Virus record (IMG/VR): IMGVR_UViG_3300025853_008930
Span: 16,706-80,705 of that record
Direction: 5' to 3' (one strand)
DNA length: 64,000 nucleotides
Origin: a virus
A program made the translations under genes and the position numbers. The stretch's first letter is position 1; every line of letters starts with the position of its first letter. Shown in pieces: positions 7,424-62,428 of this stretch. The notes under the pieces are model-generated. The model was not told the origin of the DNA and ran no database searches. It saw only the letters and a program-made list of their open reading frames with translations.

Positions 7424-8107
7424 TCACATTAACCATTTAGCCCAAGCCGCACCCTTTTGTATAGCACTACCTAAACCTAATCCGCTTTGTGGAGGTTCGT
7501 AACTCATCTGTCCTTGAGCATCTATCCAATATGGCCTTCCATAATTATCAGTTCCCGATGGTGGAATAGGATAGCCACTACCATTATTCATAGCACCTTG
7601 CATTTGATTATATTGTTGCATGTTACCTGTTAATCCTGCTACTGCGGAAGCGGCTGTTGGTTGTGCCATTTGTTGCATTTGCATACCACCGCCACCACTA
7701 AATCCTTGAGATTCTAGGTATTGTTGCTTTGCTAACTTTCTTTGATTGACAACTTCTGTATTGATTGCCGCATCTAATATGTTCTTAATATCTAACTCAA
7801 TGTTTTCTTGAGTAATCTTTTCAAATTCTCTCATTGCATCATTGTGTATCTTTAACATACCTGTTGTAGAATCAGTTGTAAATTGTAACTTAGCCAACAT
7901 CTTGCTAACTACTCTTTCTACAACATCTTCCATAAGTTTCTCCATCTGTGTCAAAAACATTTGACCATGATATTGAAAGAACTCTTCGACATGATTATCT
8001 TGTAAAGAAAGTAAGTTATTTACATTCTTGAATTGTTGGTCACTTTGTTGCTGAACTGCACCTAAAACTGTGCCATTACTTGTTCCGAATATTCCCATGT
8101 TACTCAC
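7424..8107 (-). CDS. Helical Gln/Gly-rich protein with a C-terminal amphipathic helix
   Basis: Ends GSAIQKGAAWAKWLM; coupled to the upstream genes. Confidence 0.55.
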   Translation of the reverse strand: MSNMGIFGTSNGTVLGAVQQQSDQQFKNVNNLLSLQDNHVEEFFQYHGQMFLTQMEKLMEDVVERVVSKMLAKLQFTTDSTTGMLKIHNDAMREFEKITQENIELDIKNILDAAINTEVVNQRKLAKQQYLESQGFSGGGGMQMQQMAQPTAASAVAGLTGNMQQYNQMQGAMNNGSGYPIPPSGTDNYGRPYWIDAQGQMSYEPPQSGLGLGSAIQKGAAWAKWLM

Positions 8108-8732
8108 CCTTCGCTCCCTTTAATAAATGATTTATCCTTTCTGTATTTAATTGTATTTCAGTATTCAATCTTACTATTTCTGCCAGTTGTGTTTCTTCGT
8201 CTGCTATTGGAGTTGGTGGCGTTATAGTCCATCCCATGCTAGTCAGCCTCATAACATCTTCTTTTGTTAAGTCAGTTATTTGTTGTCTTTTCAACATAGA
8301 GGGCATTTTCGCTTTAGGAATAAATGCCTTGAAATCTAATCCGTGTTCATCTGCTAATATTTGTTGTTGTAGCATTTCCATTTGCTTATGGATAGCCGCA
8401 TGTCTAGGACAATAAGTTCCTCTAAGTGGTCTTCCTTTCTCTACTTTATCTAATGGTATTGGTGGTCTTAGATAATCACCGGACTCCCAAACATGGTGAG
8501 TTCCGCATACTACACATCTATCTTTAAAGTTAAACTTGTGACCATATCTTAAGAAAAGAATTTTTTTCTTTTCCGGCAACAATACTTTTCTTATTTCTTT
8601 CATTTGCTTCTTTGGCTTTAGCGCATCAAACTTATAATCTTCAATTGGCCCAATTGCTCTATACTGTTGTAGTTTAGGCAAAAAAGCGTTCTTTGCTTGT
8701 TGCGTGTTTATCAAATTCGGTTGCTGATACAT
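8100..8732 (-). CDS. Zn-finger protein
   Basis: CVVC...CPRH motif; C-terminal coiled coil. Confidence 0.55.
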   Translation of the reverse strand: MYQQPNLINTQQAKNAFLPKLQQYRAIGPIEDYKFDALKPKKQMKEIRKVLLPEKKKILFLRYGHKFNFKDRCVVCGTHHVWESGDYLRPPIPLDKVEKGRPLRGTYCPRHAAIHKQMEMLQQQILADEHGLDFKAFIPKAKMPSMLKRQQITDLTKEDVMRLTSMGWTITPPTPIADEETQLAEIVRLNTEIQLNTERINHLLKGAKGE

Positions 8733-8735
8733 CTT

Positions 8736-9311
8736 TCATTCCTCTAAATTCTTTCTCCAATTCTTCGATTCTCTTACTTCTTCTACTTGTTCGGGTGTAA
8801 GATACATAGCAGGGTGAATATTTGCTCCCATCATACCGAATCTTTCAATTATTTCTTTTTGCTTTTCATTAACAAATTGCTTTACTTGTGGATTTTCTTC
8901 AAAGACATATATTTCAATATGAGAGGGGTCGCCATATTGACCTAAAGCATGAAAATAAATAACATCTGTAGGAAGATTAAATAAATAATCTTCCCCTAAT
9001 CTTTCTTTATCTTGTTCATCAATACCATAATATGTAATTGCATCAACTTGATTATCTATTGCCCCTCCCCCAATATCTTCTCCTCCAAAATCACCATCTA
9101 TTAAATCTCTCAATATCATATCTTTAGCAATATTGACTGAATATTCTTTTGACATATAAATAATCATACGCTGAGAATCCGAAAATACCTTACTGTCTTT
9201 CCCGTATATTCTTTTAAGTTCATCTAATATTTCTTTGGTTAAATCACCAAGATATTTTTGAGCCGAAGCCCTATCCATTCTTTTTAATATATTGAACCAC
9301 ATAATAATCAA
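8736..9311 (-). CDS. Hypothetical protein with W-tag (MWFNILKR)
   Basis: ORF track; N-terminal motif shared with many ORFs. Confidence 0.6.
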   Translation of the reverse strand: MIIMWFNILKRMDRASAQKYLGDLTKEILDELKRIYGKDSKVFSDSQRMIIYMSKEYSVNIAKDMILRDLIDGDFGGEDIGGGAIDNQVDAITYYGIDEQDKERLGEDYLFNLPTDVIYFHALGQYGDPSHIEIYVFEENPQVKQFVNEKQKEIIERFGMMGANIHPAMYLTPEQVEEVRESKNWRKNLEE

Positions 9312-9979
9312 TAATCCTTTATCATACTAGTTATTCCTTTATACACCATTTCGGGGTCGGACTTTGCTGATACTATGTATTTGAAACAAGGTATGCCCTT
9401 GTCATTCAACTGCCTCATCCCGTATGTAAATGGTTCAAATATTTCATGTTTATCTATGGGCTTATCGCTTTTATATTTCTCTCCCCACATATCATATTTG
9501 TTAGCCCATATTCCGACAGCCATAGGATAATCCACTTCTTTTTTCTTTTTACCCGAAGGCCACCTATCTGCTACAATGGTATCTACTAAAAACTTCCATG
9601 CTAATTGATGGTCTAAATTAGAAGGTGAATCTAAATGTCTATGGTCTATCATGAAAATAATATACTTTACTCTACGCTTCTGCATATCTTTAACCCATTC
9701 TTTCCAATAGATTGCTTCGCCTCCTAAGTCAGCACTTTTAATTGTATGAGAATTTCCATCAATCTTAACATTCTTTCTAGTGGCTCTATGTAAGCCAACC
9801 GTTCTTTCGCTTATTGTAGGAACTTCCCCCCTTGTTCTAAGTTGGTGGCTTAAGGTTGTTTTACCAACCATTGTAGAACCGTAAACTCCAAAGTTAATTG
9901 CATGAACTTTTTTGTAAAAACCTATTATGGCTTCACCAACAAGAATAGCAAAGCCTGTCATTATGGACATTTTATTCAC
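9308..9979 (-). CDS. Ras-superfamily (Arf/Sar-like) small GTPase
   Basis: G1 GSTMVGKT, G2 T (ERTVG), G3 DLGG, G4 NKYD, G5 SAK; hydrophobic N-terminal helix. Confidence 0.85.
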   Translation of the reverse strand: MNKMSIMTGFAILVGEAIIGFYKKVHAINFGVYGSTMVGKTTLSHQLRTRGEVPTISERTVGLHRATRKNVKIDGNSHTIKSADLGGEAIYWKEWVKDMQKRRVKYIIFMIDHRHLDSPSNLDHQLAWKFLVDTIVADRWPSGKKKKEVDYPMAVGIWANKYDMWGEKYKSDKPIDKHEIFEPFTYGMRQLNDKGIPCFKYIVSAKSDPEMVYKGITSMIKDY

Positions 9980-10497
9980 CCAAAATATTTTTCTAACATT
10001 TTTTTCATATGCTCTTTTGTTTCCATTACATCTTCATCTAGCGATAGTTCCATCCCTGCCGCACTTCTAAAATACCCTGTAATTTTAGGATAGTCATATT
10101 CTGTTGCATCATCTATTAAATTCATTAACTCCGTCGCTTTCTTTTTTACTACTTTGTCGGGTAGATATTTATATTCTATATCTTCGTCGTGAGAAATACC
10201 TCTAGGCATTCCCATTTCTTTTTTGTTTCTTATGTTTCTATTAACAGTGTATTCTCCATCGCCTTCTAGCCATTTTTCTTTATTTGTTTTCAAGGCTTGC
10301 TTTATCATGGGTTTTCCTTCATCTTTTATTGAATAAATTTTAGAACCAAAAAAAGCATAAATTAATGCTTCATCTAAAGAAGGAGTCCAATATCGAGTAT
10401 CTTCTTTTCCCTGTGTTCCTTGAAACAACTTACTGTAAGCATTAACATAATCTTTTGATTGTATTTTGTAAGGTGCTTTTAAAATATTTTTCCACAT
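9976..10497 (-). CDS. W-tag protein, possible ADP-ribosyltransferase-like fold
   Basis: Starts MWKNILKA; LFQGT...YWTPSLDEALIYA resembles the ART HGT/YxT/A..YA pattern. Confidence 0.35.
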   Translation of the reverse strand: MWKNILKAPYKIQSKDYVNAYSKLFQGTQGKEDTRYWTPSLDEALIYAFFGSKIYSIKDEGKPMIKQALKTNKEKWLEGDGEYTVNRNIRNKKEMGMPRGISHDEDIEYKYLPDKVVKKKATELMNLIDDATEYDYPKITGYFRSAAGMELSLDEDVMETKEHMKKMLEKYFG

Positions 10498-10834
10498 ATT
10501 AATGCCCCCAAATATCCATTTTATTCACCTATGAATACATCTAAACCTACAAAATCCCCGTCTATTTGTTTTTCATAGTTCCAAAAAATCTCACCGTTAA
10601 ACTCATCTTCATCCGCATATCTCAATTTCCAACCTAACTCATTTAATTTTTTATTTAGTTTATCCCAATCTACATCTAAAGGAAACAACAAATCAATATC
10701 TTTTGGGTCTTCCTTTTTACCAACCGAACCCACTATTTTAGGTTTAAAATATTCTAAATCTTTTAACAATTGATTAGCAATAGAGACATAATTTTTAAGA
10801 ATATTTTTCCACATATTAATGCCCCCAAATATCC
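10483..10834. repeat. 35-bp perfect direct repeat (10483-10517 and 10800-10834) flanking one gene
   Basis: aatatttttccacatattaatgcccccaaatatcc occurs twice. Confidence 0.95.
10521..10814 (-). CDS. W-tag protein, minimal nucleotidyltransferase (Pol-beta fold)
   Basis: Starts MWKNILKN; IVGSV...KDIDLL (GS..DxD) with a later LDVF aspartate. Confidence 0.6.
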   Translation of the reverse strand: MWKNILKNYVSIANQLLKDLEYFKPKIVGSVGKKEDPKDIDLLFPLDVDWDKLNKKLNELGWKLRYADEDEFNGEIFWNYEKQIDGDFVGLDVFIGE

Positions 10835-11034
10835 TTAGCCCTCTCTATAATCCAACCCATTATATTGATGTCAAAGACTCCCATGATATTACCTATCAAA
10901 AACGATGATAAGGCCGCACAAGAACCCCAAAAATACATCTTCATTTTTATAAAGAACATATCTGCTGAATGCGCCCGACTTTGATTATACACATAGTCGG
11001 ACTCACTAAAGCCCATTATGTCGCCAAAGACCAA
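10816..11034 (-). CDS. Small membrane protein
   Basis: Hydrophobic segment YFWGSCAALSSFLIGNIMGVF. Confidence 0.6.
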   Translation of the reverse strand: MVFGDIMGFSESDYVYNQSRAHSADMFFIKMKMYFWGSCAALSSFLIGNIMGVFDINIMGWIIERAKDIWGH

Positions 11035-11045
11035 TCAACCACAAC

Positions 11046-11453
11046 CTATTGTTGTATAGTCGCTAAGAATTCATTACCTATTGTATTGTCGTCGTATTCT
11101 TCGTTAGCCATTACTCCGCCTCGCCATGATTCACGCCTTACTGTTCCGTATTGCTTCATGCTTTCTTGTAGTTTAGCCTTGATTTGTTCTTCCCTTTGTA
11201 GTCTTTGGAAGTGATTTTCTATTTGTCTGTCTAGTAACCTAATCTCAATCTTATCATTTAGTGATAGGTCAAACAATGCTTTCATAACCATTATTCCACC
11301 AACTGTAATAAGACCAAACAAAACAGAATGTGCTAATGCCGTATAAGGAAAGTTCATTCCATATGTAGAATAGAAATATACATTCGCTCCGCTAACTGTT
11401 CCGACAAATAAAATTGTCATAATCAACCTTGTATCTTGACTTAGTGCCGCCAT
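11046..11453 (-). CDS. Two-TM membrane protein with a coiled-coil tail (holin-like topology)
   Basis: Two hydrophobic segments followed by a charged helix. Confidence 0.6.
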   Translation of the reverse strand: MAALSQDTRLIMTILFVGTVSGANVYFYSTYGMNFPYTALAHSVLFGLITVGGIMVMKALFDLSLNDKIEIRLLDRQIENHFQRLQREEQIKAKLQESMKQYGTVRRESWRGGVMANEEYDDNTIGNEFLATIQQ

Positions 11454-15466: not shown

Positions 15467-18016
15467 TTAATCCTCTTTTGGAGGTAATTCAAGACTACTA
15501 TATTTATCTTCATAAATATTCCATAATCCTTTATCAGCATCAGTATCAGCAGGTTTTTGTTCATAGCCTGTCCATGCTAGCCACATTTTCTTTCCTTTAA
15601 CTTCAAGCATTCTAACATGAAGTTTAGTTTCAAACTTATTACCCTCTAAGAAATATTCGTGATAGCCTTCCTTTTGAACACCTAACTTAACATCACCACT
15701 ATCAATCAATTTACGCTTGGATATGTTCTTAGCAACAATAGCAGGGAACTTCCCTGCCTTGCCAAATAGTTCAAAGACATCATCTTGTGAATCTAATCTA
15801 ACCATCCAATTAATGCTTTCATCACCTAACTTCATTACTATGTTTAGGCTATCGTCGTCTCTAAGATATATTTTAAACTCGCCACTTCTGTATTTTTCAG
15901 GTGTCTCATATTCTTTCTTGATAGTGTCCATTAATATCTTATCATGCTCGGCAAACAACTTTTTTGTTTTAGCATCAAAGGATATTCCATCTCTATTTTC
16001 AAACCAATCCTTAACTCTACTTTCTTTGCTTTCTAATATATCTTGATATTCTTTTTTATTATTCTTTACCAAAAAGTTGTGAACTTCTTTAGGAGTCTTT
16101 GCTCCTTTCTCTTTCAAGTAATTAAATATAGCAACAGTAAGTTTAGATTGTTTCGTTTTCATTATCTCTTCTGCTTGTTCTTTCCACAAGTCTAAATCCA
16201 TTAAGGCATTTTTAGCCATTAGATTATCTTGCTCAAAGCCATAGATAGTAAAACCATCCATATCGCTCTTAATTATAATGCTAGCCTCACCGTGAATATG
16301 GTCAGTAATTACAATGCCTTTCTCTACTTCTTCTACATTATATTTGAGAGACTTGTCAGTATCATTGATTAGCATTTGTAATGTAACTAATTTATCCGGT
16401 GTTTTACTTTCTGCAATCTCAGTTATCTTTGCGGAATAAACTACAGGCTTACCCTTGACTTCTTTTACCTTATCAATAGAGACTCTAACTACTTCTCCAA
16501 CATCTGCTGAAACTTTAGTGTTAGTAGCACTACCAACTTCAAGATAGTTTACTCCTTCTATCTTTTCATCTCCTTCTTCAACCGGCCCTGCCCCTAATTT
16601 GTAAGAAAAGTTAGAACCGTTTTTCTTTTTATCAAGAACAATTAAATCTAGTTCTACAAATGGTTTCCAACGAATCCACTTAGGATTCTTTTTCGTTCCC
16701 AAGAAATATGTAGATGTAGAATCTTTAATCATAGCCCCTTCTGCTGTTGGTATTTCCATAATTTTCTTAGCATATTCTTCAACATCTTTTAGGCTGTCTG
16801 CAACCCTAGTATCTTTTTTAGATGGGAATGTTAAGTCCTCACTAGAATGTATAGAATAGTTGTTAAACATTATTTGCATTCTATTTTGTAGCGTATCTTC
16901 CATGAGGTTTTCTTCATTGTGTCTCATAATGTCAAACACATGAATTCTAACCTTGCCTTCTCTTTTTCCCTCTAAGTATTCTGCGGCTTCTTTTCTTTTA
17001 AGAGAATCTTCTCCGTCAAATAAAACTAAAGAAGCATCTAAGATACAATCACCAAAATGTTTTTTCTTTAGTTCCTCAACTGCTTCTTTACACTTTGATG
17101 TAATGTCTTTTCCTGTATAATCATAGACTTTTATATTCTTATCTATTTTATGTAATTGAATTCTAAAACCATCGTATTTTTCTTGAACATAAAACTCACC
17201 ACTAAATCCCTTTAGTTCGTTCATATCTTCTATTGTAAATATTCTATACATTGGTTTGTTAGGGATTATGAAATCACTTTGGGCTTTTTCTTCATCGGAC
17301 TTCTTTTCTTTTAGAATAACTTTATCGTCTTGTTCCTTATCTTTAGTGGCTTTTTCTTCATCCATATCTGTATCTATGTCTTCTAATTCAGCCCACTCTT
17401 CTTTAGTGTTTTTAGATAAGAATATTAATTCTAACATATTCATAGCGGCTTTTACTTTAGCCTCTACTTTTTTAGAGTCTTTACCATCACCATAATGTTC
17501 TATAATGTAAAGTGCAACATCATCTACTTCTAGGTCTAATCCCATAAGTCCTTCTGTGATGTCATCCGGTTTCATATCTTTAATTGAATATGCTTCTTTT
17601 GGTAGTGCTTTATCATCTTCTCTAATAGCATAATGAACAAACTTAATCATAAGTTCGGGTGATTCTAATAATGCTTCTAATACATTGCCTTTGAATTTTT
17701 TAGCGAAGGGGTCACTAACTTCTTCCGAAGAATACCTAAGTGCCTTTATTGCTTCATACAATTTTTCAGCATTATTTGTGCTAACATCGGAGACATCATC
17801 CGCCTCTAATAAGTCATCATCAATATAATCCTTGAGTTCATTTGAAAGAGCATCCGTCATTTCATATGCGTCTTTAATTCTATTTACTGCGTTTCTCCAT
17901 TTAGAACCGTATTCCTTTGGGTCGGTTCTTGCTGAAAGATAAGCGACTCTCGTTCTTTCAAAGAGTCTTAGAATATCTGTGGATATTGACTTATCCTTCT
18001 CAATAAGGAGAGGCAT
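15467..18016 (-). CDS. ATP-dependent DNA ligase-like multidomain protein in the head module
   Basis: QEKYDG (motif I), LDASL, VFDIM, EGAMIK, WIRWK, OB-like region; extra N- and C-terminal domains. Confidence 0.8.
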   Translation of the reverse strand: MPLLIEKDKSISTDILRLFERTRVAYLSARTDPKEYGSKWRNAVNRIKDAYEMTDALSNELKDYIDDDLLEADDVSDVSTNNAEKLYEAIKALRYSSEEVSDPFAKKFKGNVLEALLESPELMIKFVHYAIREDDKALPKEAYSIKDMKPDDITEGLMGLDLEVDDVALYIIEHYGDGKDSKKVEAKVKAAMNMLELIFLSKNTKEEWAELEDIDTDMDEEKATKDKEQDDKVILKEKKSDEEKAQSDFIIPNKPMYRIFTIEDMNELKGFSGEFYVQEKYDGFRIQLHKIDKNIKVYDYTGKDITSKCKEAVEELKKKHFGDCILDASLVLFDGEDSLKRKEAAEYLEGKREGKVRIHVFDIMRHNEENLMEDTLQNRMQIMFNNYSIHSSEDLTFPSKKDTRVADSLKDVEEYAKKIMEIPTAEGAMIKDSTSTYFLGTKKNPKWIRWKPFVELDLIVLDKKKNGSNFSYKLGAGPVEEGDEKIEGVNYLEVGSATNTKVSADVGEVVRVSIDKVKEVKGKPVVYSAKITEIAESKTPDKLVTLQMLINDTDKSLKYNVEEVEKGIVITDHIHGEASIIIKSDMDGFTIYGFEQDNLMAKNALMDLDLWKEQAEEIMKTKQSKLTVAIFNYLKEKGAKTPKEVHNFLVKNNKKEYQDILESKESRVKDWFENRDGISFDAKTKKLFAEHDKILMDTIKKEYETPEKYRSGEFKIYLRDDDSLNIVMKLGDESINWMVRLDSQDDVFELFGKAGKFPAIVAKNISKRKLIDSGDVKLGVQKEGYHEYFLEGNKFETKLHVRMLEVKGKKMWLAWTGYEQKPADTDADKGLWNIYEDKYSSLELPPKED

Positions 18017-18541: not shown

Positions 18542-18798
18542 TACTGACCACCTACATTTTCTACCATCTTATGAATGTCTTTCCATTCCATGTTTCCTAC
18601 ATCCTTTAATGGAGAACCACCAATGGTTCCGTTATTCATCTTAGGAGTCGGACTATCAACAACAACAAAGCCGGACTTCATTAGTAAGTTATCGTCATTG
18701 TAAACTGCTTTCTCTAAACTTTCTATCTTAGCACTAAGGGCTTTAATAATCTCAAGTAGTTCTTGATTAATTGTATTTTCTTCACTCATATTTATCAC
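18541..18798 (-). CDS. Small protein sharing its C-terminal motif with the scaffold
   Basis: MEWKDIHKMV compared with scaffold MDWSDIHKMV. Confidence 0.65.
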   Translation of the reverse strand: MINMSEENTINQELLEIIKALSAKIESLEKAVYNDDNLLMKSGFVVVDSPTPKMNNGTIGGSPLKDVGNMEWKDIHKMVENVGGQ

Positions 18799-18983
18799 TT
18801 CATTTTATCCGCTAGGACAAACGGTGGACTCCCGTTATACACAAGAACCTTCTCACGGTTCTTATTAAAAATATATCCTATTGCGTATATTGCCTTTCCA
18901 GTATCCAAGTCTTTTCTTTCTCTCACAACTATTCTCTTAGTGTATAGAGGCAAGTCTTCTTTAATTATATTTTTCCAACTCAT
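18795..18983 (-). CDS. W-tag small protein (MSWKNIIKE)
   Basis: ORF track; motif. Confidence 0.6.
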   Translation of the reverse strand: MSWKNIIKEDLPLYTKRIVVRERKDLDTGKAIYAIGYIFNKNREKVLVYNGSPPFVLADKMK

Positions 18984-25556: not shown

Positions 25557-25973
25557 TCATCTCGGACTATGTGTGTAAATATCTCCATCTTTGTGCATGA
25601 ATATTTTACCTTCTTTTTCTAATTTCTTCAAGGCCGCTTTAATCTCGGTTTCCTTTCCAAATTGTTTTAGGTTTTTCATTCCTAATGCTCCGCCCTCTTT
25701 CTTAATTTCTCTTAAGATTTGACGCTCTAATTTTGCTGTCTTCATTCTAGGACTAATGTTCATAAAGTCTGTCATTTCTTCGGGGTCTTTACCAAAAATA
25801 GATTTCTTAACCTTTCTTCGTTTAAGTTCATCAAAATCTGCACCTGTTATTTTTCCTTTCGGTTTAGCCACATCTAATTTTTTTTGCCCACCATAAAGCA
25901 TCTTTTCATCTTCTTTATGAGTTCCACAATGGGCTTTCTCATCTTCTGTTTTTAGTATGTCTTTCCAACTCAT
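25557..25973 (-). CDS. W-tag basic protein (MSWKDILKT), possible C-terminal winged helix
   Basis: ORF track; motif. Confidence 0.6.
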   Translation of the reverse strand: MSWKDILKTEDEKAHCGTHKEDEKMLYGGQKKLDVAKPKGKITGADFDELKRRKVKKSIFGKDPEEMTDFMNISPRMKTAKLERQILREIKKEGGALGMKNLKQFGKETEIKAALKKLEKEGKIFMHKDGDIYTHSPR

Positions 25974-26320
25974 CTTGTAAATCCCCTGCCTCTACTTTTT
26001 GTTTTTTCTTTACTCGCTTCCTTTCTTTGCTTGGCGTAAGTGTGTGCCGCTTTTAGCCTTTTCTTTACTTTACGGTCTTTAGCATTTTTAACTGCGGCTC
26101 GTAATCTTTGCTCCACTAAATTGATTATTTGTGATTGTCTTTTATGAGACTTAGATTTGAATGCACTACTACTAAATGTTTCTTGAACATCTTTAACGGT
26201 TCTAAATTTTACAGGAACAGTATCTTTTGGGTTTTCATCTGTGTATAATCTTCTTGCTGAACCTTTTGGTTTTTTACCCGTTCCTTTTTTCGGGTCAGCC
26301 TTCAAGATATTCTGCCACAT
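25970..26320 (-). CDS. W-tag basic protein (MWQNILKA)
   Basis: ORF track; motif. Confidence 0.6.
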   Translation of the reverse strand: MWQNILKADPKKGTGKKPKGSARRLYTDENPKDTVPVKFRTVKDVQETFSSSAFKSKSHKRQSQIINLVEQRLRAAVKNAKDRKVKKRLKAAHTYAKQRKEASKEKTKSRGRGFTR

Positions 26321-27006: not shown

Positions 27007-28362
27007 TTATGCTATCACTCCTCCAATATTTTCCATACTATCCATTAAAGACATTTTACAGTTGTCTTTGTATTTCTGTATGTTATCAAGATATATACCT
27101 TCTTTTAGCCAATCAAAACCAACATGGTCTTTGTGATTTTCCCACTTCATCAGTTTAAAAATCTCATCACATCTTCCCTTATACCAATCTTCTTTCTTGT
27201 AGGATTTTTTCATCCGTATAAGTTCCATAAGTAATTTAGCATTACCTTTTTTTAATCTAAAATGAGGGAGGCATTTTTCCAATAAACCATAAACATCATC
27301 TTGAGAATAAAAATTTAATCTTTGAACAGGTCTAGTTTGTTGCGGAGACTTTTGATTTAGATGCAACTTACCAAAGCCTATACTCTTGTGCATTTCTTCC
27401 ATGAATGCTCTACCTCTTTCTCCTGTGGCAATAAGTCCAACTCTAGGGTTATGGTTTCTATCCATTGTAATGTAACCATCCGAATCAATAAATGCCGCAG
27501 TATAAGCCCAAATGTTTTTCTTAAGCATTGTTGGTAATTTGTAATATGCCCCATCAACATTAGCAACATCTAACTTCTTTACCATTTTAGAAATCATATT
27601 TGTTGTTGTGCTTTTATGCAAAGTGTTTGGCATTCTATCATGTATTTGTTTAGCACCGATAGAAGGACTTTTGATAATTTCACTTTCAATAAATGACATG
27701 ATTCTTTCTTTCTTACTCTTAGTAATAGATTGGTCTGTAATATTTTTTATTTGTTGCTTGTAATCTCTTTTAGCGAGACGACATTCTTTTTCTAATTGAG
27801 CATATTCTTTAGAGTAAACCATATCTGTTTTCTTTAGGTCACTCTCCCAATACTTACATATTGCATCAATAATATTTCTTCTACCATTTACAGAATCAAT
27901 CTTATTTATTTTCATGAGGTCTTTCTCACTAAAGCCCATCTTAAGTATCGCAGGTTTGTATGGTTTAATCCAATAGATAGAATCTATGCACTTATTGATA
28001 TGGTCGGAATATCCATCAATAACAGTATCAATAGCCTTAGCCATTCTAGTTCGCTGTTCTCCTTTTAACTTCCTTCGAGCCTTTCTCATTTTCTTCACAA
28101 GGTCGGGTATGTTTTCACCATCAATAGAATATTCACTAGGGAAAGAACTCAATTGTTTTCTAGCATCACTAGCATTAATGTTTAGATTCTTAGAAAGTAA
28201 ATTTACTGCTTCATAATCCGACATAATATAATCATTTACAGAAGCCAATTTATTTCCCAACGCTTCTTCAATTTCATCCTTAGTTTCGTCTTGCTCTCTT
28301 TGAAGTTCAGCAAGCCTAGCCATGTTTCGTGAACCTTCTTCATACTCTTCTGCTGTTGGCAT
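27007..28362 (-). CDS. Protein with a C-terminal LAGLIDADG endonuclease-like domain
   Basis: WAYTAAFIDSDGYI motif; long helical N-terminal region and possible HTH. Confidence 0.75.
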   Translation of the reverse strand: MPTAEEYEEGSRNMARLAELQREQDETKDEIEEALGNKLASVNDYIMSDYEAVNLLSKNLNINASDARKQLSSFPSEYSIDGENIPDLVKKMRKARRKLKGEQRTRMAKAIDTVIDGYSDHINKCIDSIYWIKPYKPAILKMGFSEKDLMKINKIDSVNGRRNIIDAICKYWESDLKKTDMVYSKEYAQLEKECRLAKRDYKQQIKNITDQSITKSKKERIMSFIESEIIKSPSIGAKQIHDRMPNTLHKSTTTNMISKMVKKLDVANVDGAYYKLPTMLKKNIWAYTAAFIDSDGYITMDRNHNPRVGLIATGERGRAFMEEMHKSIGFGKLHLNQKSPQQTRPVQRLNFYSQDDVYGLLEKCLPHFRLKKGNAKLLMELIRMKKSYKKEDWYKGRCDEIFKLMKWENHKDHVGFDWLKEGIYLDNIQKYKDNCKMSLMDSMENIGGVIA

Positions 28363-35382: not shown

Positions 35383-35526
35383 CTACTTCATAGCATATCT
35401 TTCTATTTCATCTATCGCTGTCTTAACATACTTAGGGGCTGACTTCATACTATCTCTTAGTGTTGCTAAGGCTTGAGCAATCATAGCCTCATCTATATCT
35501 TCTTTAATTATATCTTGCCAATTCAT
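35383..35526 (-). CDS. 47-aa W-tag protein (MNWQDIIKED...), missing from the ORF track
   Basis: Hand-translated; GGTGA SD upstream. Confidence 0.65.
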   Translation of the reverse strand: MNWQDIIKEDIDEAMIAQALATLRDSMKSAPKYVKTAIDEIERYAMK

Positions 35527-35535
35527 TGTAATCAC

Positions 35536-35976
35536 CTAATATGAGCCTTGCCAATCAATGTCTCCTCTATACTCGAATTGGTTTTTATCTTTTTGATTTT
35601 TCATATCAATGTAAACTGTAACACTCGAAACATTAAAACTAGGGCTTTCGTATGAGTCGGGCATATGATTATCTAATTTATCTGCATCAAACTCTACATC
35701 ATATTCAGTTTCGTCTTGCTCAAATGTATCTGTCTCTACAACATAATTAAAGTTTAGACGGACTTTACTCGCATAAGACCCAACACCCTTTACTCCCCAA
35801 CTTCTAAGTTCAACATCAAATCTTCCGTCTACATATCCAGTTGCATTGTCAATGTATGAGTCATTTTTTTCTTCGGGAGCATTTTCTAAAAAAACACTTA
35901 GCATTCTGCCATCTATTTCCCAAGTAATGTCTGCCATTTTTTTAATATCTTCTTTTACTATATCTTTCCAACTCAT
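35536..35976 (-). CDS. W-tag acidic beta-rich protein (MSWKDIVKED)
   Basis: ORF track; motif. Confidence 0.6.
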   Translation of the reverse strand: MSWKDIVKEDIKKMADITWEIDGRMLSVFLENAPEEKNDSYIDNATGYVDGRFDVELRSWGVKGVGSYASKVRLNFNYVVETDTFEQDETEYDVEFDADKLDNHMPDSYESPSFNVSSVTVYIDMKNQKDKNQFEYRGDIDWQGSY

Positions 35977-36629
35977 TGTAATTTCTCCTGCATTCTTTTC
36001 TTAATGTCTAACCAAATTTCGGGATTGTTTTCAGCAAGCACTTCTTGGACAATTTGCATCTGTGCAAATATAATTGTGTCCTGTCTCTTATGTATAAGTT
36101 TGCCCTTAAACTCCATAAGATATTTTAGCGACTCCCTAACTTCTTTCGCAAGTTTAGTTAGGCTATCTATTTCTCTAGGTTCTAAATCAACTGCACCGAA
36201 CAAGTCATCTAACTTGCTATCCAGTCTTTGTATGTTATTACTTAGCAAATCAATCTCATTAACTTCTTTCTTTGCTATTATTACTGCGGCTGACTCTTGA
36301 ACAATCGGTGCTAGATGGTGTTTCATGTGTCGTTGCACTTGTTCCTTTGTAGTGTCTAATGCTTCGGCAATTGCTTCAGCACTTATTTCACCATTGGCTA
36401 AGTTTTCTTCGTAGTGCTTTCTCATTGGGTCTGTGCATAATACACACTTAGGATTACTACTATTGACATAATCTCCCATGTGATTTCTTTGGTGTTGTGC
36501 CGCAGTTCCACTTCTCCAATCGTGTCTTGAATCTAAATCATCACAAGAAACCTCACCGGCTTCCAACATTCTTTCAAGTTCTTCTCTATCTTCATGTTGG
36601 CAAAAGCCACAACGCTTTCTTGTTACCAT
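35973..36629 (-). CDS. Zn/HTH protein, candidate terminase small subunit
   Basis: Two CxxC...HxxxH units with HTH-like helices, then a coiled coil. Confidence 0.45.
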   Translation of the reverse strand: MVTRKRCGFCQHEDREELERMLEAGEVSCDDLDSRHDWRSGTAAQHQRNHMGDYVNSSNPKCVLCTDPMRKHYEENLANGEISAEAIAEALDTTKEQVQRHMKHHLAPIVQESAAVIIAKKEVNEIDLLSNNIQRLDSKLDDLFGAVDLEPREIDSLTKLAKEVRESLKYLMEFKGKLIHKRQDTIIFAQMQIVQEVLAENNPEIWLDIKKRMQEKLQ

Positions 36630-38779: not shown

Positions 38780-39079
38780 TTAATCATCTAAAGCAATAGA
38801 CATGATTTTTTCTATCTCTTTTTCGAGTCCTTTTATTGTTCTATTCATTGACTCTCTTTTTTCAGCATCAAAATCTTTACTCATCGTTTGTAATTCCTTG
38901 ATTGTTTTCTTTAGTTCATCTACTCTTTTCAAAAAGTAACTCATGTCTCTTTTCTCTTGGCCTCTAACCGCTTTGCCCTTTAGTCTTCTTCTTTCCAAAG
39001 CCCTTTGCTTTCTTCTGCGAATTCTATCTTTCTCTCGTTCAAAACGACTATCTTCTTTAATTATGTTTTCCCAGTTCAT
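38780..39079 (-). CDS. W-tag coiled-coil protein (MNWENIIKED)
   Basis: ORF track; motif. Confidence 0.6.
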   Translation of the reverse strand: MNWENIIKEDSRFEREKDRIRRRKQRALERRRLKGKAVRGQEKRDMSYFLKRVDELKKTIKELQTMSKDFDAEKRESMNRTIKGLEKEIEKIMSIALDD

Positions 39080-39080
39080 A

Positions 39081-39308
39081 TCAAGCCCTCGCTAAACTTC
39101 CAAGTATTCTCTTAATGCTATCCATAGTAGTCTTATGCAATCTATGATATTCTCCGGCAATGTCTTCAAACTCTTCAGCATCAATCATTTCTTCACCTTG
39201 ATACTGTCTAACAATTTCATCCAACTCTTTCAAAACATCCCTTTGTCTGCCAAAGTTATCAATGGCATTTTGCGTGGTGTTACGCTTTAGAATACTTTGC
39301 CATGCCAT
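39081..39308 (-). CDS. W-tag protein (MAWQSILKR)
   Basis: ORF track; motif. Confidence 0.6.
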   Translation of the reverse strand: MAWQSILKRNTTQNAIDNFGRQRDVLKELDEIVRQYQGEEMIDAEEFEDIAGEYHRLHKTTMDSIKRILGSLARA

Positions 39309-39310
39309 AA

Positions 39311-39760
39311 TTAACTCTCCATCGCATTCTTATCTTGGAAACCCCTACTAAATCCCTGCTCAAAGTCTATTCGCTTAACTTCTTTAACCGCACTAGTAGT
39401 AGGGTCGTCTTTTATTTCTTTAAATCTCATAATAGCCAAATCTACAAAAGATTCTATTCCTTCGGGAGTCAATCGCATTATAGTATCATTTTTTGGACTG
39501 TTGCCCCCGAAAAGGTCTACTGTTACAAAGGGCGTATCATCTTCCCCTGTGTCAATAAAAGCAATTTCATATGCCTTATATGAATGAGGGTCTTGTAATT
39601 TGCCGTGAGGAATTGACCCTAATCTATCTCCTGCTACCACGCTTAATTCTAAATCGGGTGCAATTTCAGTTCTTGAGTGATAGCCTCTCCTGTCATTATA
39701 CGGCTTAAACTCAATATCTTGGAATCTAAATTGTTTCTTAAGAATATCTTGCCAAGTCAT
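39311..39760 (-). CDS. W-tag protein (MTWQDILKK)
   Basis: ORF track; motif. Confidence 0.6.
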   Translation of the reverse strand: MTWQDILKKQFRFQDIEFKPYNDRRGYHSRTEIAPDLELSVVAGDRLGSIPHGKLQDPHSYKAYEIAFIDTGEDDTPFVTVDLFGGNSPKNDTIMRLTPEGIESFVDLAIMRFKEIKDDPTTSAVKEVKRIDFEQGFSRGFQDKNAMES

Positions 39761-40113
39761 TTCTTACCCACCTGTCTGCCTTCTCCTGAAAATGGATTAT
39801 ATGGAATATTTCTCGCTTTTCTTCTAGCCCTCATAGGCATTGAGTTAGTTTTATTACCTGCCATTCCAAACCCTACCTTTTTTCCTTTTCTTTGCTTAGT
39901 TTTACCCTTTGGTTGTGGTTGTCCAAAACTAGGTGAATCTGTTACATTACCAAACTCTTCTTCTAGTTCTTGCATTTCTGCATCTCTAACCTTTTTAGAA
40001 CTTCGTCGTTCAACCCCAAGTTTCTTTTTTTGACGGTCATCTATTTTCCTTTCTATTGCTCTCAACCTACCTTCGGTAAAATATGGCTTTTTTAGTATAT
40101 CTTGCCAAGTCAT
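39757..40113 (-). CDS. W-tag basic protein (MTWQDILKK)
   Basis: ORF track; motif. Confidence 0.6.
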   Translation of the reverse strand: MTWQDILKKPYFTEGRLRAIERKIDDRQKKKLGVERRSSKKVRDAEMQELEEEFGNVTDSPSFGQPQPKGKTKQRKGKKVGFGMAGNKTNSMPMRARRKARNIPYNPFSGEGRQVGKK

Positions 40114-40217
40114 TTCTTACCACCTGTAACAAAACACTTCTTTGACTTTGCCTCTTTCTCATCAACTTCTTTTGACTTTGCATCAAACCACTTATCGAGA
40201 TAACTACACCTTGTCAT
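40110..40217 (-). CDS. 35-aa microprotein (MTRCSYLDKWFDAKSK...)
   Basis: Hand-translated; same GGTGAATAATATGACA start context as its neighbours. Confidence 0.5.
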   Translation of the reverse strand: MTRCSYLDKWFDAKSKEVDEKEAKSKKCFVTGGKK

Positions 40218-40218
40218 A

Positions 40219-40569
40219 TTATTCACCTTCGGGGCCATAATCTCCTACATATCGAGCAAGTCTTAAAATTTCTTCAGCCACATCTCTAGCCTCAAATTCC
40301 AAACCTGCTAATTTATCATAGAACTCTATTATTTTATTCTCATCATAATCTCTATTATCCCTGTTGTAGTCTCTTACTTTTTCAAAGAGTTTTATGTAGT
40401 AATCTCTTGCGTCTACAGCCGGATTTTTTTCGTGCATTTCCATTAATTCAAATTTTGTTCTCACTAAACCTCTTATTAATTTAGACCTTGAGTCCATAGA
40501 CCTTTCTCGTCTATCAATTGCATCTCCTAAATCTTTTCTTATTTCGTCTTTCCATGTCATATTATTCAC
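40219..40569 (-). CDS. W-tag protein (MTWKDEIRK)
   Basis: ORF track; motif. Confidence 0.6.
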   Translation of the reverse strand: MNNMTWKDEIRKDLGDAIDRRERSMDSRSKLIRGLVRTKFELMEMHEKNPAVDARDYYIKLFEKVRDYNRDNRDYDENKIIEFYDKLAGLEFEARDVAEEILRLARYVGDYGPEGE

Positions 40570-40716
40570 CTACTGTAATTTTTTCAACATTAGTGCCGCT
40601 TTAGAACAAACTTTCCTTAGTAGGTCTGCATCATACATATCTTGTTTACTTGCATCCTCTAAATAATCTATCACATGCTCAAGCCCTTTTTGTTTAATTA
40701 TATCTTCCCATGTCAT
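40570..40716 (-). CDS. 48-aa W-tag protein (MTWEDIIKQK...), missing from the ORF track
   Basis: Hand-translated; GGTGA SD upstream. Confidence 0.65.
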   Translation of the reverse strand: MTWEDIIKQKGLEHVIDYLEDASKQDMYDADLLRKVCSKAALMLKKLQ

Positions 40717-40758
40717 ATTATTCACCTTTTATTTTAAACGCTTTTTTCAAAAATTTTT

Positions 40759-41136
40759 CTAGGATTTTTTTCTACCGGCTTCTTTCATTTCATCACGATA
40801 TTCAAATAGAGTTTCCTGTATTGCTTTTTCTATTGCTTGTGTTATTTTATAAAAGCGATTATTAGGGAATGAAAAACCCACAACAGGGTAGGCTTCAAAC
40901 TTGTCTGCAAAATAAAGATAGGATTTATGTAATATCTCTCGTATATTTGCATAATCTAAATAATCAACCCCATCAACTATCTCAAAGGGGGTTTTTTCAT
41001 TAAGATTATAATGTTCTCTACCATCAAAAATAATACTTTTCGCCTCTTCTCGGCTCATTGAACCACCCGCCTTTCTTCTAGCATCTATGTTTTCACTATG
41101 CTCACTCGTTTTTTTAACGGTATCTTTCCAATTCAT
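40759..41136 (-). CDS. W-tag protein (MNWKDTVKK)
   Basis: ORF track; motif. Confidence 0.6.
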   Translation of the reverse strand: MNWKDTVKKTSEHSENIDARRKAGGSMSREEAKSIIFDGREHYNLNEKTPFEIVDGVDYLDYANIREILHKSYLYFADKFEAYPVVGFSFPNNRFYKITQAIEKAIQETLFEYRDEMKEAGRKKS

Positions 41137-60895: not shown

Positions 60896-62428
60896 ATGAT
60901 AGATTGGAAAATGATGAGCCGGTTGTTAGAATCCACGAAGGGAAAGACACCAACAAAACAAGTAAAATTGATAGCAACAGAACTAGATAAGTTCGATACA
61001 CATAAGAGCGCAGTAATACAATTACTTGCTAGAGAATATCCTAACAATAACATTGGTTTGGCTAAGGCTAAGTCTTGGCTTGCTAAGATGTTTGATTGTT
61101 TTGATGATGAGATAGAAAGCCTATTCGCTATTGATGATGAATTGGGAGAGGCTATCTATATGTTAGATACAAGTGCAGAAACAGAACGAAACATAAGTAT
61201 AACTTCTGTCTTAAGAGTTTTAGAAACTAATTGTGGTGCTGTAGACGATTCTTCTTATCTCTTAGTTAAAGATGTATTATCAAATATGTCAGCATTAGAA
61301 AGAAGGTGGTTTGTTAGATATTGGATTCGTTCCCCTACTAATGGAATAGACGAAGGAGTAGTTAAGAAAGTATTAGCAAAACATTACGATAAGAAACTAA
61401 GTGAAGTTAAGAAACATGCTAACTTCAATACCTTGTATAATGTTACCATGTATTATGAAATGAAAGAAGACCCTCCGTGTAATTTATCACATGGTTCTTT
61501 TGTAAAACCAATGCTAGCAAAGGAAGTTCTTATGAATAAGTGGCCGGAAAATAAGATAGTAGATTACAAGTATGATGGTAACAGATACCAAATACACAAA
61601 CAAGGAGATAATGTAATTATTTTTAATCGTAAAGGCTCTATCGTTACTCCACAGTTTCAAGATGTCGTAGAGACAGTTAGACAGTATGAAGTAGATTGTA
61701 TTCTTGATGGTGAGATATATCCAATTAAGGATGATGGTTCACCTGCTGAACATAAACTAATGGGAACAAGAGTTCATTCTAAAGACCACGCAGAAGCAAG
61801 AGAGAGGGTTAAAGTCAAGTGGGTTATATTTGATTGCCTTAAAATCGGTAATGAAACTATAATGGACTTATCTTATAGCGATAGATTAGGTAAGTTTTCG
61901 CAACTCCCCGACCAAGCACATAGAATGGAAGAGGGCGGTGATGTTCTAGCATTCTATAATAGAGCGATTAACGATGGTTTTGAGGGCATTATTGTCAAAG
62001 ATACTAATTTACCCTATGAGGCAGGTAAAAGAAGCGCAGGATGGGCTAAATACAAGCCTCCTCGCATTGAATTAGATGTGGCTATTACTACTGCTAAATA
62101 TGGCGAAGGCTCAAGAGCAAATGTGTTTGGAACTTTTGGTATTTCTGTAAAGAGTGATAGTGGTTTCAAATCAGTAGGTTCTATCGGAACGGGCTTTAGT
62201 GATGCTGATTTAGTTTGGCTAACTAATGAACTTAGAAAGAATGTAGAGACTTACAACAATGGCACATACAATTTATTACCGAGAGTTGTCTTAGAAGTAT
62301 CAGCAGACTTAGTTACTCAAGATGCAAAGGGCAACTATGGATTAAGATTCCCACGATGTAAAAGAATACGGCATGATAAGTTTGTTGCTGATATAAATAC
62401 AATAGAAGATGTGGAGAGACTACTATGA
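60896..62428 (+). CDS. lig: ATP-dependent DNA ligase
   Basis: KPMLA, YKYDGNR, LDGE, IFD, EGIIVK, WAKYK, LRFPR. Confidence 0.95.
   Translation: MIDWKMMSRLLESTKGKTPTKQVKLIATELDKFDTHKSAVIQLLAREYPNNNIGLAKAKSWLAKMFDCFDDEIESLFAIDDELGEAIYMLDTSAETERNISITSVLRVLETNCGAVDDSSYLLVKDVLSNMSALERRWFVRYWIRSPTNGIDEGVVKKVLAKHYDKKLSEVKKHANFNTLYNVTMYYEMKEDPPCNLSHGSFVKPMLAKEVLMNKWPENKIVDYKYDGNRYQIHKQGDNVIIFNRKGSIVTPQFQDVVETVRQYEVDCILDGEIYPIKDDGSPAEHKLMGTRVHSKDHAEARERVKVKWVIFDCLKIGNETIMDLSYSDRLGKFSQLPDQAHRMEEGGDVLAFYNRAINDGFEGIIVKDTNLPYEAGKRSAGWAKYKPPRIELDVAITTAKYGEGSRANVFGTFGISVKSDSGFKSVGSIGTGFSDADLVWLTNELRKNVETYNNGTYNLLPRVVLEVSADLVTQDAKGNYGLRFPRCKRIRHDKFVADINTIEDVERLL

Follow-up and report, generated by a model that had tools for sequence, protein, structure and literature searches.

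A five-gene cassette built around an Arf-like small GTPase was analysed in IMG/VR record IMGVR_UViG_3300025853_008930 (80,705 bp; completeness estimated at 86% by CheckV). The window, meaning the whole stretch of DNA under analysis, covered 64,000 nucleotides (positions 16,706 to 80,705 of the record), and positions are counted from its first letter. The cassette was located at 7424–11453 together with three interspersed genes bearing a short N-terminal motif, the W-tag. All eight open reading frames (ORFs) were found on the minus strand at the coordinates listed here and below. With the W-tag genes set aside, the core order was a protein with two transmembrane (TM) segments, a 1-TM protein, the GTPase, a Cys/His protein and a Gln/Gly-rich protein:

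11046..11453, minus strand: 2-TM protein, first cassette gene, 135 aa (from ORF and hydropathy).
10816..11034, minus strand: 1-TM protein, second cassette gene, 72 aa (from ORF and hydropathy).
9308..9979, minus strand: Arf-like small GTPase, 223 aa as listed, probably 220 aa from an ATG at 9970.
8100..8732, minus strand: Cys/His protein, fixed partner downstream of the GTPase, 210 aa.
7424..8107, minus strand: Gln/Gly-rich protein, last cassette gene, 227 aa.

The virus was identified from the genes on both strands. A minus-strand block, running from ~41.6 kb down to base 1, encodes terminase, portal, prohead protease, an SU10-type major capsid protein and a tail-tube-like protein, and a plus-strand block encodes a UvrD-type helicase, a TFIIB-like factor, a thermosome-type chaperonin and an ATP-dependent ligase. 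The window GTPase was 79% identical to gp088 of Poseidoniales virus YSH_150918, annotated as a hypothetical protein (RefSeq). Because of the gene content of both blocks and this identity, the window is assigned to a magrovirus, i.e., a tailed virus infecting Marine Group II (Poseidoniales) archaea. Queries of the "phages" collection with DNA or protein gave no match to the window, and this collection possibly holds no near records. In surface seawater, magroviruses count among the most abundant viruses, and their hosts are uncultured.

The GTPase was laid out as an N-terminal hydrophobic helix, a basic YKK and a G domain with G1 (GSTMVGKT, residues 34–41), G2 (T60 in ERTVG, switch I), G3 (DLGG, 84–87), G4 (NKYD, 160–163) and G5 (SAK, 204–206). 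Its relatives and the ESM Atlas record begin at residue 4 (MSIM...), so the true start is probably 9970. The first-pass annotation, made from the DNA letters of the window, had named five G motifs including an Arf-type DLGG, and all five were present. In a 54-sequence family alignment reaching down to ~22% identity, G34, G39, K40, D84, G87, D112, N160 and K161 were invariant and W95 nearly so. Full-length GTPase copies (150, from 160 loci) all kept G1, G4 (NKxD) and DxxG with W at +11 intact (150/150); the third DxGG position was Gly in 140 and Ala in 10. The residue after DxGG was Glu in the window and invariant within the window's group, E, Q or D in the 160 loci, and H in family representative P0136.

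The hydrophobic N-terminal helix noted at first pass was placed at residues 3–25 in the AlphaFold2 (AF2) model, with a mean Kyte-Doolittle hydrophobicity of 1.8 over 18 residues. In the window's group it gave an Eisenberg hydrophobicity (H) of 0.72 and a moment of 0.19 and was hydrophobic all round; being uniformly hydrophobic with so low a moment, it resembles an anchor rather than an amphipathic helix. The moment reaches ~0.5 in another GTPase group. A helix at this place is common to every family member, and its sequence differs between groups.

Curated models were compared with the window GTPase. G1, G3, G4 and G5 were found in the order of the Ras superfamily (TRAFAC P-loop), and the small G-domain fold was present. 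The best curated matches were MMR_HSR1 (18.9 bits, cut-off 21.9; E 0.0017) and TIGR00231 (22.2 bits, cut-off 42.5); Pfam SRPRB matched at E 0.014, Pfam Arf (PF00025) gave no match at E 0.1, and a single-sequence search of the PDB gave no match. On these scores the protein is too divergent for curated models. An exhaustive profile search of 1.84 billion representatives returned only 74 proteins and, because curated models barely detect it and so few members were returned, the family is judged to be small and isolated.

Against the PDB, the best match of the family profile was 8oun (E 1.4e-9), which is GerdArfR1, an Asgard Arf-related GTPase, followed by Rab33B, KRas and Arl3. The switch II signature, DxGG with a Trp 11 residues after the Asp, was present and aligned with DLGGQ...W of GerdArfR1. 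A first AF2 model, built from 20 close sequences, was poor (predicted local distance difference test score 59.6) and was set aside. On re-ranking of structural neighbours, the top 31 rows were Arf6, Arf1, Arl1, Arl3, Arl6 and Arl8. An unbiased structure search placed Arf6 first, then a Rag-like GTPase, SRbeta, Sar1 and G-alpha, with a lead of Arf over Rab of only ~1 Z; plain Foldseek placed Rab and Ras first and did not separate the subfamilies.

Pfam Arf was matched at E<=0.01 by 8/54 family members. The remotest relatives, which were found with the viral profile (P0169, P0187, P0183 and P0159), pass Pfam Arf at 27–57 bits against a cut-off of 22.3, and a large homology search added ~20 further small proteins related to them, all carrying Arf, beyond which it returned two-domain Der GTPases only. 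In the ESM Atlas, the nearest non-viral clusters carry Arf in 17–100% of members. Scans of viral contigs for the remote relatives P0191 and P0179 gave no match. The GTPase is placed nearest to Arf, Sar1 and SRbeta by the PDB profile match, by its neighbours in structure searches, by the DxGG..W signature and by remote relatives scoring above the Pfam Arf cut-off. These four kinds of evidence agree with the Arf/Sar-like identity first proposed, with the qualification that the window protein, a real Arf/Sar1/SRbeta-like small GTPase, is not an Arf family member by curated criteria. Ras-like GTPases had also been called unusual in tailed viruses; PHROGs holds no family for the window GTPase, and the best 50 matches in a BFVD structure search were all giant-virus proteins, both in keeping with that remark.

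Features of the viral GTPase were set beside those of cellular and viral relatives. With the Arf family (Arf1, Arf6, Arl1/3/6/8, Sar1; ArfR GerdArfR1, PDB 8OUN/8OUM) it shares a helix before strand 1 and the DxGG with conserved Trp 11 residues after the Asp, at ~20% identity. The catalytic Gln/His that follows DxGG in Arf is Glu in the window's viral group, the N-terminal helix is amphipathic in Arf and hydrophobic all round in this group, the viral protein has no Gly2 for myristoylation, and, unlike Arf family genes, the viral gene belongs to a tailed virus and is tied to membrane-protein genes. SRbeta serves protein targeting, whereas the viral gene stands in a late operon; its Pfam score was below cut-off, and the virus has no partner of SRalpha/SRX type. 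Giant-virus GTPases (e.g., mimivirus Rab, PDB 5XC5) were captured recently from eukaryotic hosts, belong clearly to Rab, Ras or Ran, and function at eukaryotic endomembranes; the viral GTPase, in contrast, comes from an archaeal tailed virus, lies far from cellular families and would work in a host without endomembranes.

The two proteins encoded upstream of the GTPase are predicted membrane proteins. For the 135-aa protein, membrane helices were predicted at ~10–28 and ~37–65, followed by a charged C-terminal tail of 70 residues (11 K+R, 13 D+E) that is probably coiled; this layout resembles that of class-II holins, by features only, and no Pfam, PHROGs or NCBIfam family was matched. The 72-aa protein has one long hydrophobic segment, delimited at ~34–63 or more narrowly at 38–63, and a short charged C-terminus (ERAKDIWGH).

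The first protein downstream of the GTPase had been called a Zn-finger protein. Its basic N-terminal stretch is followed by C73-x2-C76 ... C108-P-x-H111, so that the pattern itself was present, whereas C76 was not conserved in other virus groups. The residues invariant across groups were P40, L51, G64, C73, G77, G100, C108, P109, H111 and P144, and the Cys/His pattern is probably a metal site. No match was obtained in Pfam, PHROGs or NCBIfam, and the PDB gave one chance-level row (E 0.35).

The last protein had been described as helical with an amphipathic C-terminus. An N-terminus of MG(I/L)FG type precedes a conserved core of ~100 aa that includes a hydrophobic helix, and the protein is probably helical over ~31–140 only; residues 141–227 are a Gly/Gln/Ala/Met-rich low-complexity stretch with a short Trp/Lys-rich C-terminus, and the C-terminal amphipathic moment was modest (~0.35). 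The earlier description as helical thus holds only in part. No match was found in Pfam, the PDB or the ESM Atlas. Since the MG(L/I)FG start resembles that of CHMP3, an ESCRT-III-like reading was weighed and then dropped, as neither Snf7 nor PspA was matched even at E 1.

Conservation of the cassette was scored in two sets of loci. The close set comprised 80 IMG/VR loci with GTPases 82–99% identical to that of the window, and the core genes were found, in cassette order, in 77/80, 78/80, 80/80, 73/80 and 68/80 of these, the shortfalls being mostly contig ends. The 135-aa gene stood directly upstream of the 1-TM gene, and in most loci the 1-TM stop lay 3–4 nt before the GTPase start and the GTPase stop 14 nt before the Cys/His gene. 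The divergent set comprised 80 loci on contigs up to ~110 kb with GTPases ~30% identical. Here a TM protein of ~150–200 aa (1–2 TM segments), a 1-TM protein of 73–86 aa and the GTPase were followed by a protein of ~300–345 aa, one of ~205–228 aa and an extra 2-TM protein of ~80–90 aa. Iteration with hidden Markov models recovered the ~300–345-aa protein as a Cys/His homologue in 80/80 divergent loci, 1–3 called ORFs downstream of the GTPase and mostly directly. The Gln/Gly-rich protein matched the 205–228-aa protein (hhalign probability 86%, E 4.8e-6, 94 columns), the divergent Gln-rich protein likewise having a hydrophobic helix, and the 135-aa protein matched its positional analogue weakly (hhalign E 0.0036). 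TM proteins matched only weakly across groups, as is usual for short membrane proteins. The genes occur together in close and divergent relatives alike, and it was on such co-occurrence that the first-pass annotation had made its five-gene module depend.

The cassette does not occupy the same place in all groups. In the window it follows the capsid gene; in divergent loci it does not, and lies upstream of homologues of the protein encoded at 35973–36629 and, 9–11 genes on, of terminase. The comparison indicates that it was relocated as one unit with its internal order kept, and order kept despite a changed genome position argues for functional linkage. Tailed-virus operons do keep gene order for long, for packaging and timing, and the five genes might on that account be neighbours by descent only, with no joint function. 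Against this, the internal order is kept at different genome positions in different groups and insertions are tolerated only at cassette junctions, and we regard mere neighbourhood as very improbable.

Two further genes were recorded beside the divergent cassettes. The protein at 35973–36629 (minus strand, 218 aa) has an N-terminal CxxC and a weak HTH_20 match. Few window genes have clear homologues throughout the divergent loci; this one does (78 hits, best E 3.8e-47), and its homologues lie 4–6 genes downstream of the GTPase there. In divergent magrovirus loci L081–L096, a conserved ORF of 47–49 aa with the start MSRHVSVVMPDDLF (e.g., L083:8136-8282) stands directly upstream of the cassette; it is absent from the window and may be a small regulator heading the transcription unit.

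Between the core genes of the window the following insertions were mapped:

10521..10814, minus strand: W-tag gene, non-core, 97 aa, MWKNILK start; in 2/80 close loci.
10477–10517 and 10794–10834: 41-nt direct repeat, 95% identical, flanking the 97-aa W-tag gene.
9976..10497, minus strand: W-tag gene, non-core, 173 aa, MWKNILK start; in 3/80 close loci.
8736..9311, minus strand: W-tag gene, non-core, 191 aa, N-terminus MIIMWFNILKR; in 3/80 close loci.

Since each was found in only 2–3/80 close loci, the three W-tag genes are, on their distribution, late inserts into the cassette. In most relatives the core genes abut directly with no W-tag gene between them, and insertions were seen only at gene junctions. 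The 41-nt repeat copies the junction at which the last 1-TM codons and their stop (DIWGH-stop) meet an MWKNI start, and it appears to be the trace of a gene inserted by recombination at a shared leader sequence. The 97-aa protein gave weak nucleotidyltransferase-like matches (Pfam DUF6932, E 0.02; PHROG nucleotidyltransferase, E 0.073), and the 173-aa protein matched no family (Pfam, PHROGs). Across the whole minus-strand block, ~25 small genes, these three included, share the N-terminal motif M(x)W(K/Q)(N/D)I(L/I)K, many of them in arrays; further examples in the window lie at 18795–18983, 25557–26320, 35383–35976 and 38780–41136.

The cassette was found within a long, gap-free operon with virion genes, only 9–12 nt from the structural genes on both sides, which bears out the late-operon placement given at first pass. 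Conservation was ranked in loci with GTPases 80–90% identical; median identity in the same loci was 85% for the GTPase, 66% for the capsid protein and 72% for the protease. By this ranking the GTPase is under strong purifying selection.

From this anatomy the cassette is read as a membrane-directed GTP switch that would act late on the host cytoplasmic membrane, most probably for progeny release, a reading to which we assign a probability of roughly 0.4. The cassette would be made together with the virion proteins. The N-terminal helix of the GTPase would keep its G domain on the membrane next to the two TM proteins encoded upstream, and the binding or hydrolysis of GTP, possibly modulated by the Cys/His protein, would then gate or drive the membrane and low-complexity proteins, with hole formation, budding or rupture as the outcome at the bilayer. 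In a host without a peptidoglycan wall, the cassette would replace the holin-endolysin logic of phages. Consistent with release, 3/5 of the window proteins were predicted in or on the membrane, and up to 5/6 in other groups. To our knowledge, Poseidoniales have no peptidoglycan wall, and a release system would therefore act on the membrane and S-layer. No lysis enzyme was found among the larger ORFs of the window with Pfam or PHROGs, and the earlier remark that no endolysin is visible there stands. In head-tailed archaeal viruses generally, the players in egress are uncharacterised and holins have not been identified (PMC10791045).

The position in the genome invites another account, in which the five proteins are virion-associated or serve assembly, either as membrane-active ejection or internal proteins (P22- or T7-like) that open the membrane of the recipient cell at entry, or as a GTP-using assembly factor. 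Podovirus ejection-protein genes (P22, T7) sit at a comparable place. The window cassette lies between capsid-proximal small genes and tail genes, with the short gaps given above, and the 659-aa and 372-aa genes that follow have no function from Pfam or PHROGs. Divergent groups, however, carry the cassette upstream of the terminase region and not between head and tail genes, so its position is not tied to head-tail joining. The GTPase also has no N-terminal W-tag, which many small genes of the genome carry, and we know of no precedent for a regulatory small GTPase as a virion component. A role in the virion is therefore considered unlikely.

The membrane might also be used without being breached. 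The cassette could reprogramme the host from the membrane by blocking division, by setting up a replication or assembly site, or by sensing guanine nucleotides (energy) to time late events. In many settings, switches of the Arf, Sar1, SRbeta and Rag types bring effectors to membranes; the structural neighbours included SRbeta and a Rag-like GTPase, and the strongly basic conserved stretch of the Cys/His protein could bind nucleic acid. Take-over genes are usually early and variable. The cassette, by contrast, is a late unit with deep conservation and tighter constraint than the capsid protein, and it counts three to five membrane proteins among its own members. We hold host reprogramming to be distinctly improbable.

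By analogy, the closest functional parallel to the viral cassette is ArvA/ArvB/ArvC (OapABC) of Haloferax volcanii and other Euryarchaeota. In Haloferax, the Arf-like GTPase ArvA (HVO_3014), which has an amphipathic helix at its N-terminus, drives the budding of extracellular vesicles. It acts with two partners from its operon, and one of these, a Zn-ribbon protein, has been proposed as its GTPase-activating protein (PMC10927574). ArvABC acts on the archaeal cytoplasmic membrane (PMC10927574). Both systems combine a small Arf-like GTPase carrying an N-terminal helix with fixed partners, of which one is Cys-rich and metal-binding (for the viral protein, as predicted). A search for OapB (PF09846) matched the Haloferax and Methanosarcina controls and nothing in the 80.7-kb genome; ArvC (OapC) is a DUF2072 Zn-ribbon protein, and the viral Cys/His protein gave no DUF2072 match. 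Unlike ArvABC, the viral cassette adds two or three small TM proteins and the Gln/Gly-rich protein. The viral cassette, compared in this way, parallels ArvA logic and is not the same system.

A viral counterpart of ArvA vesiculation might nonetheless serve a use other than lysis, such as decoy vesicles, receptor shedding (superinfection exclusion) or export, with release by another route. Overexpression of ArvA raises vesicle output (PMC10927574), and in the viral cassette, too, an Arf-like GTPase is accompanied by a Cys/His protein. The genome has no OapB domain, Pfam yielded no family for the Cys/His protein, not even DUF2072, and exclusion genes are usually early, whereas the cassette stands in a late structural operon; a vesiculation role of this kind seems improbable.

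For the reading as a late switch for progeny release, phage holin cassettes and the Sulfolobus pyramid (VAP) protein offer a second comparison, since in these too small late membrane proteins are encoded together. By layout only, both the viral 2-TM protein, with its charged tail, and the viral 1-TM protein would fit holin classes, and the cassette TM proteins showed no likeness to holin or PVAP families in Pfam or PHROGs. Phage lysis cassettes have an endolysin, and none was seen with the viral cassette. In P2-like phages, lysis genes also lie between head and tail genes. We know of no lysis system that contains a small GTPase.

Several observations weigh against release by a GTP switch. The window GTPase misses every Pfam GTPase cut-off (Ras/Arf/Roc/MMR_HSR1) and that of TIGR00231, and its biochemistry may therefore differ from that of Arf; because the residue following DxGG varies (E, Q, D, H), intrinsic hydrolysis may be weak or different. 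Small TM proteins are common, and "holin-like" is a description by features only. In the Cys/His protein no arginine is invariant, and it does not resemble ArfGAP or ArvC (OapC); its basic N-terminus would also suit nucleic-acid binding. Lying among genes for head and tail, the cassette could just as well encode virion or ejection proteins. A more specific proposal, that the cassette is the missing release machine of head-tailed archaeal viruses, a GTP-gated device for membrane rupture or budding in which an Arf-like switch, anchored through its N-terminal helix, controls holin-like proteins and a membrane-active low-complexity protein, is put forward tentatively and is at present doubtful.

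Other genes of the window were noted in passing. Two ATP-dependent DNA ligase domains were found. One lies at 60896–62428 (plus strand) in a standard 510-aa ligase of the replication block, and the other at 15467–18016 (minus strand) within an 849-aa protein of the structural operon, immediately upstream of the prohead protease. A 451-aa protein adjoining the large terminase (27007–28362, minus strand) has an HNH-endonuclease-like stretch (PHROG 5046, E 5.5e-6) and may be a terminase-associated HNH protein. Searches with the viral thermosome reached one metagenome-assembled genome labelled Gammaproteobacteria and one labelled Roizmanbacteria, and no convincing relative of the GTPase was found in either. 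A 99.5-kb contig (L161, CAZGFG010000003.1), binned in a Gammaproteobacteria-labelled metagenome-assembled genome that has no relative of the GTPase, encodes a thermosome 35% identical to the viral one and may be a mis-binned archaeal-virus-like contig.

In the magrovirus and archaeal tailed-virus papers that were searched, the main text makes no mention of a GTPase, a joint search for "magrovirus" and "GTPase" found no paper, and the five-gene cassette is undescribed in this literature. With it, the question of egress in head-tailed archaeal viruses is given five concrete genes to start from. It also brings prokaryotic viruses into the known range of Arf-like membrane GTPases, which bears on how membrane remodelling by small GTPases arose before eukaryotes. 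If the cassette is indeed a GTP-gated release machine, it would represent a lysis principle with no bacteriophage counterpart, and a virus-borne relative of the small-GTPase membrane remodelling known from eukaryotes and, recently, from archaeal vesicle formation.

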